From: a virus
Taxonomy: Duplodnaviria; Caudoviricetes
Length of the DNA stretch: 40,832 bases
Direction: 5' to 3' (one strand)
IMG/VR virus record: IMGVR_UViG_3300034053_000015
Location: 1 to 40,832 of that record
Shown here: piece by piece, positions 36,915 through 39,056 of the stretch
Position numbering within the stretch: the stretch's first letter is position 1
Layout of the letters: each line of letters opens with the position of its first letter
The notes under the pieces: model-generated
Told to the model about the DNA's origin: nothing
The model's database searches: none
Seen by the model: the letters and a program-made list of their open reading frames with translations, nothing else
Made by a program: the position numbers and the translations under genes

Positions 36915-39056
36915 CTATATACCGCTGATGAGGTCGATGGGGGCATACATATCATCATCTACATCCGCCGAACCATAGTTAGTCACCGCCATCTGGTTAA
37001 TGTAAGCCAAACTTTCGATGCAGTTATGAACTAACACCCCATCAGCGAAGAACTCATGATCCCCTTCAACCATCAGATCGTAGACTGGAACGGCGTTCTC
37101 TAGCAATCCTTGCTTGCCTGTCGTTTCCACACTTTCTACCGCACAAGACTTGCCTAGATATTTTTGGCTTGAAAGTGCAGCCGCATTCATCGCATCGTTT
37201 TTCAGGCCAATCTCTGAGTAGCGTTTTTTTCGCATGCTCTCTGCCCCATGCTCTACATTCTTCCGTCTTGTGCCATTGGTTAGCAAGAGGCCGAATGGTA
37301 GCGAGATGAGCCACTTGTTTTGCCGATTTACCTCTTTTGCTACTTTCCTCACGATGCTCCACATAATGCGCGGCTGATGAGAGGCAAACAAGGTTTTCAA
37401 CTGAGTTGTTGTTGAAGTCTCCGTCAGAATGGTGAATGTGGTGTCCTTCTGGAATTGGCCCGTTGTGAAATTCCCAGATGTCTCGATGGAGCAATCTTGG
37501 TGTTTTTCTCCAAGCATCATGGCTTGAGTAGTATTTCCGGTGATTGCCTTGCTTTGCTTCTGGGTATCTGTGATAGCTTCTTCCATTGAATTCGACTGTT
37601 TCTCGCATGATGTAACCTCGACTGGTTGTGATACAAGTAGTATATCCGTATCACACAAAGAGTCAAGACTTACCCACGACCTGTTTTCAGTCCAAACACG
37701 GTGCTCTGGAGTTCCAGTAATCCCGTATTTTGTGATTACTTTCTTATTCCCCTTGCACCATGCTTTCAATACTTTCCGATACCCATTCCTAGTCAAGACA
37801 TAATCATCCGTGGTCACATCCTCAATTCTCTTTACCTTATCAAGAGTGATGATTGATGTATCCGCAGGGAAGCAATCGTCGTGAACATTAGGCGTCGGGA
37901 ACATAAGATACTCATCCCTGAACACTTCCTGCCATCCATTTCGTTCTTTCATACCTTCCGAGTTCAGAGTTATACGTCCATGCTCGAACATTCCTTGTAA
38001 TGCCCACACTATCCGGTCGGTTTTCTTCTGATTTTGGTGAGTTAGTGGATGGATATGGAAATAAACTCCATTTTTCCTCATCAAATCGGTCAAATATGGC
38101 ATTACGGCGTTAAAAGTGGTTCCTTTTTCGATTCCAACCATCAATGGTTTGAATTCCCGGTAGTTTTTCAGGATTCTGACCGCAGTTTCCCTAACATCCC
38201 ACCTTCCGAACTCGATTTTCCTTACAAACCACTTACCATCGTCGGTTACTTTCACTATAGCGAAGGCACTTTGGTCTAATCGTTTCTTCCTTACTGTATT
38301 GGCGACGGCGACATCTTCAAACCCCGCCAGGTCACACGCCATATAGTAAGAGCCTTCTCTCGGTTCATTCCCGTACTTCAACCATCCTTCCTTGAACAGA
38401 TCCGTTCCTGCGTTGTTGAAGGAGGCCATGTACTCCTGGTTAAACGCGAAACTGGATAGAGTCCTTCTAGCGGCTTCGATTTCCTTTGGGTCGATTAACT
38501 CGTTATCTGCCGTAGTTAATTGCCAACTCTTGTACTCCGAATCATAACTATCCGACTCCTCATCCCCGATCAAGAACAGATCATAGAAGTGGTTACGCCC
38601 TTTAGGAGTTCCGATAAACAATGCGTCTCCCTTCTGATCTGACAGTGCTGCTCGAATGATCTGCTCCCATACTACAGGTTTCATATCGGCGTATTCATCC
38701 AATACCACGAAGGTTAGAGATACGCCTCGTAAAGTATCCGGTCTATCAGCCCCTCTAATGTATATGGTGATTCCGTTTATTAGCTTGATTTCCAGGTTAT
38801 TTACATGGGCGGAATCAATCACATCACGCCCTAGGTTCATCAACAAGTCCCAGATAATCACCCGAGCCTGACCCATAGTAGGCGCGACGTACATGACCGC
38901 TGACCCTTGCGGACACTGCAATCCCTCTAATAGTAGGTTCACCGCAGCCAGACGGGACTTACCACATCGCCTCCCCGCTACGACTACCTTGAATCGTGCT
39001 TTGTAGTTCAGTACCTCGCGTTGCCACTTGAGAAGTTGGAACGATAACTGTGTCAT
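36915..39056 (-). CDS. terL: Terminase large subunit with intein
   Basis: AGRRCGKS Walker A, VVLDE Walker B, FIGTPKGRNHFY, CDLAG, HDD|...|CIESL nuclease motif. Confidence 0.95.
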   Translation of the reverse strand: MTQLSFQLLKWQREVLNYKARFKVVVAGRRCGKSRLAAVNLLLEGLQCPQGSAVMYVAPTMGQARVIIWDLLMNLGRDVIDSAHVNNLEIKLINGITIYIRGADRPDTLRGVSLTFVVLDEYADMKPVVWEQIIRAALSDQKGDALFIGTPKGRNHFYDLFLIGDEESDSYDSEYKSWQLTTADNELIDPKEIEAARRTLSSFAFNQEYMASFNNAGTDLFKEGWLKYGNEPREGSYYMACDLAGFEDVAVANTVRKKRLDQSAFAIVKVTDDGKWFVRKIEFGRWDVRETAVRILKNYREFKPLMVGIEKGTTFNAVMPYLTDLMRKNGVYFHIHPLTHQNQKKTDRIVWALQGMFEHGRITLNSEGMKERNGWQEVFRDEYLMFPTPNVHDDCFPADTSIITLDKVKRIEDVTTDDYVLTRNGYRKVLKAWCKGNKKVITKYGITGTPEHRVWTENRSWVSLDSLCDTDILLVSQPVEVTSCEKQSNSMEEAITDTQKQSKAITGNTTQAMMLGEKHQDCSIETSGNFTTGQFQKDTTFTILTETSTTTQLKTLFASHQPRIMWSIVRKVAKEVNRQNKWLISLPFGLLLTNGTRRKNVEHGAESMRKKRYSEIGLKNDAMNAAALSSQKYLGKSCAVESVETTGKQGLLENAVPVYDLMVEGDHEFFADGVLVHNCIESLAYINQMAVTNYGSADVDDDMYAPIDLISGI
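37066..37608 (-). CDS. HNH endonuclease with C-terminal zinc finger, nested out of frame within the terL intein
   Basis: LHRDIWE.HNGPIPEGHHIHHSDGDFNNNSVENL.CL...H; CDECG..CGRKC; ATG with SD GAGGT. Confidence 0.88.
   Translation of the reverse strand: MRETVEFNGRSYHRYPEAKQGNHRKYYSSHDAWRKTPRLLHRDIWEFHNGPIPEGHHIHHSDGDFNNNSVENLVCLSSAAHYVEHREESSKRGKSAKQVAHLATIRPLANQWHKTEECRAWGREHAKKTLLRDWPEKRCDECGCTFKPKISRQVLCGRKCGNDRQARIARERRSSLRSDG
37639..37666 (-). promoter_or_regulatory. Internal promoter for the nested HNH gene
   Basis: TTGACT-N16-TATACT ending 30 nt before the ATG; TGTGATAC-N13-GTATCACA palindrome around the -10. Confidence 0.6.

Follow-up and report, generated by a model that had tools for sequence, protein, structure and literature searches.

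The large terminase subunit gene (terL) of a tailed phage is interrupted by an element that is very probably read in two frames: an intein within terL that is predicted to splice itself out and, in a second frame of the same DNA, a separate HNH gene that likely has its own internal promoter and whose product is predicted to act in homing. The window analysed here, the whole stretch of 40,832 nucleotides, is a tailed-phage genome by gene content (portal, major head, tail, lysis and replication genes), and judged by its portal and virion proteins the virus looks short-tailed. The features of the element are listed in Table 1.

Table 1. Features of terL, its intein and the nested HNH gene (positions in the window).
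Feature	Position	Strand	Remarks
terL, large terminase subunit	36915..39056	-	Precursor of 713 aa; the intein sits close to where the nuclease domain ends
Class 1 intein	37023..37874	-	284 aa, frame continuous with terL
N-terminal splicing region	37620..37874	-	Cys1, block B T55-x-x-H58; model pLDDT about 96
C-terminal splicing region	37023..37109	-	Blocks F and G, VYDL...HN; provides the HNH stop codon
+1 Cys codon (TGC)	37020..37022	-	Leu in the closest empty allele L210
HNH_3 and C-terminal four-Cys zinc-finger gene	37066..37608	-	180 aa, +2 of the intein frame; the same DNA is the in-frame filler
Shine-Dalgarno-like GAGGT	37615..37619	-	6-nt spacer to the HNH ATG
Predicted sigma70-like promoter TTGACT-16-TATACT	37639..37666	-	In intein coding sequence; ends 30 nt before the HNH ATG
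Predicted RNA hairpin over SD and start codon	37606..37678	-	In the long terL mRNA; cannot form in the internal-promoter transcript

Architecture of the terL intein and the nested HNH gene

The intein is inserted directly after the HDD motif, near the nuclease-domain end of terL, and carries the class 1 residue set C1, T55-x-x-H58 (TPEH), VYDL, H283-N284 and Cys+1. The Pfam profile Intein_splicing matches terL at E 9e-8, a value under the curated cut-off because of the long insert. The Hint fold is apparent in the AlphaFold model, with pLDDT 93–97 at both intein ends, and all ten matches obtained at E ≤ 0.001 when this model was compared with solved structures by Foldseek are inteins (best 6qaz, E 2.6e-4). 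In addition, the insert is missing at the exact site from homologous alleles, 70 of the 80 loci being empty. The intein is likely to splice out of the terminase. The second residue past the insertion site (37022-37011) is Glu in the window (CIES; LIES in the empty allele L210) and Asp in most relatives.

Between the two splicing regions the intein frame contains 20% Ser and Thr and no stop, and the overlapping HNH frame matches HNH_3 at E 4e-15 over residues 39–81. Its TGA stop is created by the Val-Glu codons of intein block F. A preliminary description of this DNA had claimed intact splicing blocks (Cys1, TPEH, VYDL and HN followed by Cys), a Ser/Thr-rich stop-free middle and a complete HNH and zinc-finger frame with an ATG and a GAGGT at a 6-nt spacer, ending inside block F; profile searches of both frames, which it had proposed as a check, and inspection of the motifs bear out each of these points.

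The hidden frame gave no Pfam match to Endonuclease_7, and PHROG assigns it to HNH families. Its AlphaFold model has a pLDDT of 84.6. The intron-encoded homing endonuclease I-HmuI (PDB 1U3E) is the best solved match both by sequence (E 0.11) and by fold (E 0.035, probability 0.90, TM 0.28, a weak match), and the model also matches phage and viral HNH nucleases at E 1e-4. The two proteins share the extended HNH_3 architecture; unlike I-HmuI, to which it is 14% identical, the window's protein has a C-terminal zinc finger and is nested in an intein instead of being intron-encoded.

When the HNH gene was recoded synonymously (300 trials), 4.55 stops were expected in the intein frame and zero occurred in a single trial of the 300; the real sequence has zero. 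The third, unused frame contains 14 stops over the same region. The open intein frame across the HNH gene therefore exceeds chance.

Selection acts on the HNH frame

dN/dS was estimated in three bands of identity, with 17, 9 and 26 independent pairs; the distant bands are near saturation. The HNH frame gave 0.16, 0.14 and 0.18 and the N-terminal splicing region 0.15, 0.07 and 0.13, as compared with 1.12, 1.35 and 1.28 for the filler frame; values above 1 are found in the filler because constraint in the other frame produces them. Within the HNH protein, His59, His60, Asn68, Asn72 and His81 are kept in 114–116 of 116 elements and the four zinc Cys in 112–114, so that the His/Asn motif of HNH_3 homing endonucleases is intact and under purifying selection. 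Block B Thr (T55) and His (H58) are kept in all 116 elements; the intein termini are, in this family comparison, partly fixed by the parsing.

The filler is predicted to be unfolded: pLDDT is below 50 for 163 of the 284 intein residues, comprising most of residues 87–253. Its three invariant Gly sit under Trp codons of the HNH gene. A conserved folded domain in the filler was considered and is rejected by its dN/dS of 1.1–1.35, by the low pLDDT and by this explanation of the Gly residues. Purifying selection thus acts on the HNH frame, whereas the filler behaves as a passenger, in agreement with the earlier proposal of a tolerated filler peptide; the dN/dS comparison suggested there as a check favours the HNH frame (0.14–0.18 versus about 1).

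A widespread family with a constant frame offset

Relatives were collected with the HNH protein as query, a search that is blind to frame. It yielded 209 loci, some representing the same contig twice, from sources contributing 9, the best 80 of 112, 48 of 48 and the best 80 of at least 443; with the window these make 210. Both splicing blocks lie in one open reading frame with the HNH at +2 in 168 of them, and none has the HNH in the intein's own frame, which was the finding that could have overturned the preliminary description. The others comprise three split loci with the same offset, 18 without a visible intein and 21 that are partial or otherwise framed. The 167 parsed elements form 116 clusters at 90% and 67 at 50% HNH identity, and the +2 offset is constant in the 168 loci down to about 30% identity. 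As had been anticipated, standard annotation misses the gene: it is unannotated within the terL of the cultured phages Highwayman, phiCDHM19, TJE1 and LS06-2018-MD07. Isolates of Streptomyces, Nocardiopsis and Corynebacterium also have the element in their genomes, as do bins assigned to many further phyla, assignments which may be wrong.

Among the 42 loci of other than standard form, 24 were inspected. Dual-coding inteins of greater divergence account for at least five of them, and split inteins whose halves flank the HNH for five (L073, L109–L112); six are free-standing HNH genes directly after an intact terL, two have a duplicated terL end and one is in frame +1. In the HNH tree (FastTree, midpoint-rooted), free-standing and split forms fall inside dual-coding clades, with weak support at depth; the invasion of a mini-intein by a free-standing HNH, which had been suggested earlier, is one possible order of events. 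A search with the splicing domain, for which a broad alignment proved too divergent and a closer one was used, returned 23 loci. The nine closest of these are dual-coding; two others carry a mini-intein at the same site.

Several variants deserve mention. L106 and L118 have a duplicated terL 3' end flanking the HNH and no intein. L114 contains the same HNH family in a contiguous intein in frame +1, which suggests an independent framing event. In L066, L067, L072 and L076 the same element occupies another site, further towards the start of the terminase nuclease domain. The annotation of L294 (phiCD119, AY855346) splits terL in two across the element, which may be a frameshifted copy. In the terminases of L039, L146 and L022 a second intein lies upstream, and its out-of-frame nuclease-like frame is a different one, at +1 in L039 (with a promoter-like site) and at +2 in L146 and L022 (EndoVII-like by eye), and the intein of L320 (Vibrio phage 1.265.O, MG592630) has an antisense open frame of 256 codons, Vsr/EDxHD-like by eye.

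Empty alleles and probable mobility

The best 80 relatives of the N-extein, from a scan covering 9 of 64 parts, comprised 70 empty alleles, two filled ones and eight without the site. In all 70 empty alleles, the residue at each of the two insertion sites is one other than Cys, Ser or Thr. The closest, L210, is 88% identical with Leu at the +1 position; this pair could represent loss instead of gain. The filled L277 and the empty L268 are 100% identical over 120 nt upstream and over most of the downstream exon, the sole differences around the site being TGT for CCT and one synonymous base. The distant empty alleles L082 and L106 carry Cys at the site. Because the 70 close empty alleles lack it, the simplest reading is that the +1 Cys nucleophile likely was copied in together with the element; alternatively, Cys-bearing empty alleles have been depleted by invasion.

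Filled alleles stand at several separate places of the extein tree (FastTree, midpoint-rooted), some beside empty alleles of 99% identity, and extein and HNH identities are discordant, as in L137/L138 (55% versus 73%). Two element lineages (43–45% HNH identity to that of the window) occupy sites one codon apart. This patchy distribution, discordant with that of the host gene, points to mobility of the element.

Putative expression signals of the HNH gene

Scored with weights that are consensus frequencies, the promoter-like site of the window ranks third among all positions of the whole window. A simple promoter scan of 3 kb showed no excess of sites over shuffled sequences (3 versus 5.1). Across the family, a score of at least 9 occurs directly upstream of the HNH start in 61 of 113 elements, compared with 6–12 of 113 in four upstream windows, and after dereplication at 50% in 35 of 66 versus 0–9 of 66. 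Strong scores were obtained for 90 of 165 elements versus 2 of 24 control inteins without this HNH; these controls are few, more distant than the family and include two mini-inteins from the same site, and one of the two high-scoring ones hides its own out-of-frame nuclease frame. The signal is absent at the equivalent position of the EndoVII-type out-of-frame inteins L022 and L146.

Against a null model of extein codons, 53 of 106 elements score at p<0.05. With the stricter null of intein codons this falls to 20 of 113 (3–5 in control windows), and the amino acids of the splicing domain therefore supply part of the signal, which follows from its Asp-Ile-Leu-type codons. In phiCDHM19 the site is a perfect TTGACA-17-TATAAT. 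The spacing from promoter to start is bimodal: 16 of 106 elements, among them the actinobacterial isolates and TJE1, have the −10 box at a distance of exactly 6 nt upstream of the start. With this spacing the mRNA would be leaderless.

The HNH start is ATG in 106 of 116 elements. Shine-Dalgarno matches of at least 4 nt precede it in 46 of 59 leadered elements, compared with 22% of background ATGs, and matches of at least 5 nt in 30 of 59 leadered versus 2 of 17 leaderless-type elements. In the window the hairpin is strongly predicted, with an unpaired probability of 0.09 in the long mRNA and 0.51 in the short one. Conservation of this hairpin throughout the family was considered and is not supported, since its shape is not conserved and the effect is a modest tendency only (0.38 versus 0.54; control 0.45 versus 0.49; 57 of 113 elements). 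Conserved starts, SD enrichment and the promoter-like site support the separate translation of the HNH protein that had been proposed from the window alone, and the gene is likely to be expressed from its own internal promoter.

Discussion

According to the model that we favour, and which we hold to be very probable as a whole, terL would be translated as a single 713-aa precursor. Its splicing domain, assembled from two halves with about 170 unstructured residues in between, would remove these residues and leave a terminase of 429 aa. Transcription by a host sigma70-type polymerase would begin about 25 nt ahead of the HNH ATG, at a promoter formed by the last codons of the N-terminal splicing region, and the short mRNA would not depend on terL. 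In the long terL mRNA of the window the ribosome site would be masked by the hairpin, and in the short one it would be accessible; where the −10 box lies 6 nt before the start, as in some lineages, the mRNA may be leaderless. During co-infection the I-HmuI-like HNH protein would make a nick or cut in an empty terL allele, close to the HDD motif, and repair would copy the intein and its +1 Cys codon into that allele. With the Cys codon copied along, alleles without a nucleophile could be invaded.

Other explanations of how the HNH protein is made were weighed. It might arise only by internal initiation on the long terL mRNA, the promoter-like site being a by-product of splicing-domain codons. 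The −10-like hexamer does usually overlap conserved Asp-x-hydrophobic codons, and promoter scores under the synonymous null are raised at this position (6.2 versus about 3.6 elsewhere). Control inteins with the same motif nevertheless score low, the two same-site mini-inteins among them, the elements with the −10 box at exactly 6 nt mostly lack a strong SD, and phiCDHM19 has a perfect site, so that we consider internal initiation alone unlikely. A programmed −1 ribosomal frameshift, fusing the N-extein and the N-terminal splicing region to the HNH, would fit the offset, +2 being equal to −1, and in-phase slippery heptamers near the start are found in 17 of 116 elements versus 8 of 116 in a control stretch. 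However, the window has no slippery heptamer, a stop in the HNH frame lies at a median of 8 codons before the start (within 20 codons in 101 of 116), and the ATG starts and SD enrichment speak for initiation; frameshifting is thus very improbable.

Equally remote is the notion that the HNH protein serves the phage, for example as a domesticated packaging cofactor, rather than homing. The model for such a role is HK97 gp74, an HNH packaging cofactor. Strong purifying selection on the HNH and its constant link to terminase, free-standing relatives included, would be expected of a cofactor, but the insert is absent at this site from 70 close terL alleles, its distribution is patchy with discordance between extein and HNH, and the architecture resembles that of I-HmuI-type homing enzymes. 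Finally, the two frames could result from an assembly error, or from recent decay of an in-frame HNH intein through two compensating frameshifts. Both are ruled out, and left with a negligible probability, by the 168 loci that keep this offset, among them isolate genomes and cultured phages, and by the lack of any locus with the HNH in frame.

The two-frame architecture as such has been published, for an EndoVII-like nuclease in an intein (Gosselin et al., 2025) and for an HNH in an insert without an intein (Arsenault et al., 2025). In its accessible text, the first of these (bioRxiv 10.1101/2025.01.02.630785) describes inteins with same-strand frame-3 EndoVII-like, antisense LAGLIDADG and antisense Vsr-like nucleases, HNH inteins in frame only, and many non-canonical inteins located in terminase. 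The window's element resembles these in being a contiguous intein with a same-strand nuclease frame in frame 3, an open but unstructured in-frame middle, and a nuclease missed by annotation; an origin from a free-standing nuclease is also proposed there. It differs in that its nuclease is HNH_3 with a zinc finger and is not EndoVII-like, in that the family is found across many host phyla and sits predominantly at the nuclease motif of terminase, and in that dN/dS and promoter evidence is given here and none in the accessible text of that paper. Phage TJE1 is unnamed in its main text; the supplementary tables might include it.

In the available text of Arsenault et al., 2025 (PMC11855218) a frame-3 HNH in a methylase insert without an intein is reported, its translation being left open; the preliminary description had mentioned out-of-frame HNHs in phage insertions. 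As in the present element, the HNH of this ShiLan-type insertion has zinc fingers and is encoded in frame 3 of an insert without stops, and the distribution is patchy; the leaderless initiation proposed for it has a counterpart in the leaderless-type starts seen here. As described there, it is without a splicing domain and lies in a non-essential host gene, whereas here an intein would rescue an essential one. None of the 40 listed among 48 tblastn matches is from a mycobacteriophage.

The fractured genes described by Dassa et al., 2009 (PMC2677866), in which split inteins flank a free-standing endonuclease, share with the family, as far as the paper's accessible text goes, a separately encoded nuclease between intein halves, a 3' overlap with the C-terminal half, and upstream hairpins and promoters. 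Their split layout recurs in L073 and L109–L112 with the HNH family found here. The window's intein, by contrast, is one continuous frame, and the nucleases in that account are GIY-YIG and Vsr-like. The mycobacteriophage TerL inteins a–g, reported to splice and to cut empty alleles (Kelley et al., 2016; PMC5050341), share the class of host gene; as presented there all lie in the ATPase domain, while the present intein is located in the C-terminal nuclease motif and lacks an in-frame nuclease. Barth et al. (PMC10448857), in the portions available, discuss the HK97 cofactor case and the occurrence of homing nucleases close to terminase. Our literature searches, with most subscription papers outside their coverage, did not turn up any description of an HNH lying out of frame within a contiguous terminase intein. 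What seems new here is an HNH family in frame-3 terminase inteins, which would work like the published frame-3 inteins without EndoVII.

A rare published curiosity thereby becomes a large family (more than 100 elements) with direct evidence of selection on the hidden gene, one which annotation overlooks in cultured phage genomes. The putative internal promoter offers a testable answer to the question, left open in the accessible text of both 2025 papers, of how nested nucleases are expressed. The family also allows the 'splicing first, nuclease later' model of intein origin to be tested, and indicates that a freely drifting stretch of about 170 residues can be tolerated within a splicing domain. 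More broadly, we see an even chance that the family is old, extends across phyla and consists of self-contained elements with three layers, namely a splicing domain, a promoter in its codons and an independently selected nuclease, and that these elements, bringing their own +1 Cys, have colonised several codon positions of the terminase nuclease motif and interconvert with free-standing, split-intein and mini-intein forms. If so, active elements of this type would account for many of the inteins now classed as 'decayed', and the family would be a living series for the gain and loss of homing nucleases by inteins.

Other genes of the window

A second, canonical intein of 334 aa with an in-frame LAGLIDADG (6837-5836, minus strand) lies within the helicase gene (6936-4438); it has no strong promoter-like site where the terL intein has one. 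Immediately upstream of terL is a free-standing HNH_3-AP2 gene (39556-39056, minus strand), whose stop overlaps the terL start. A free-standing endonuclease VII gene (26697-25990, minus strand) is located just downstream of the major capsid gene, and a 319-aa protein with seven ALTTAQ repeats is encoded in the virion gene block (34129-33170, minus strand).
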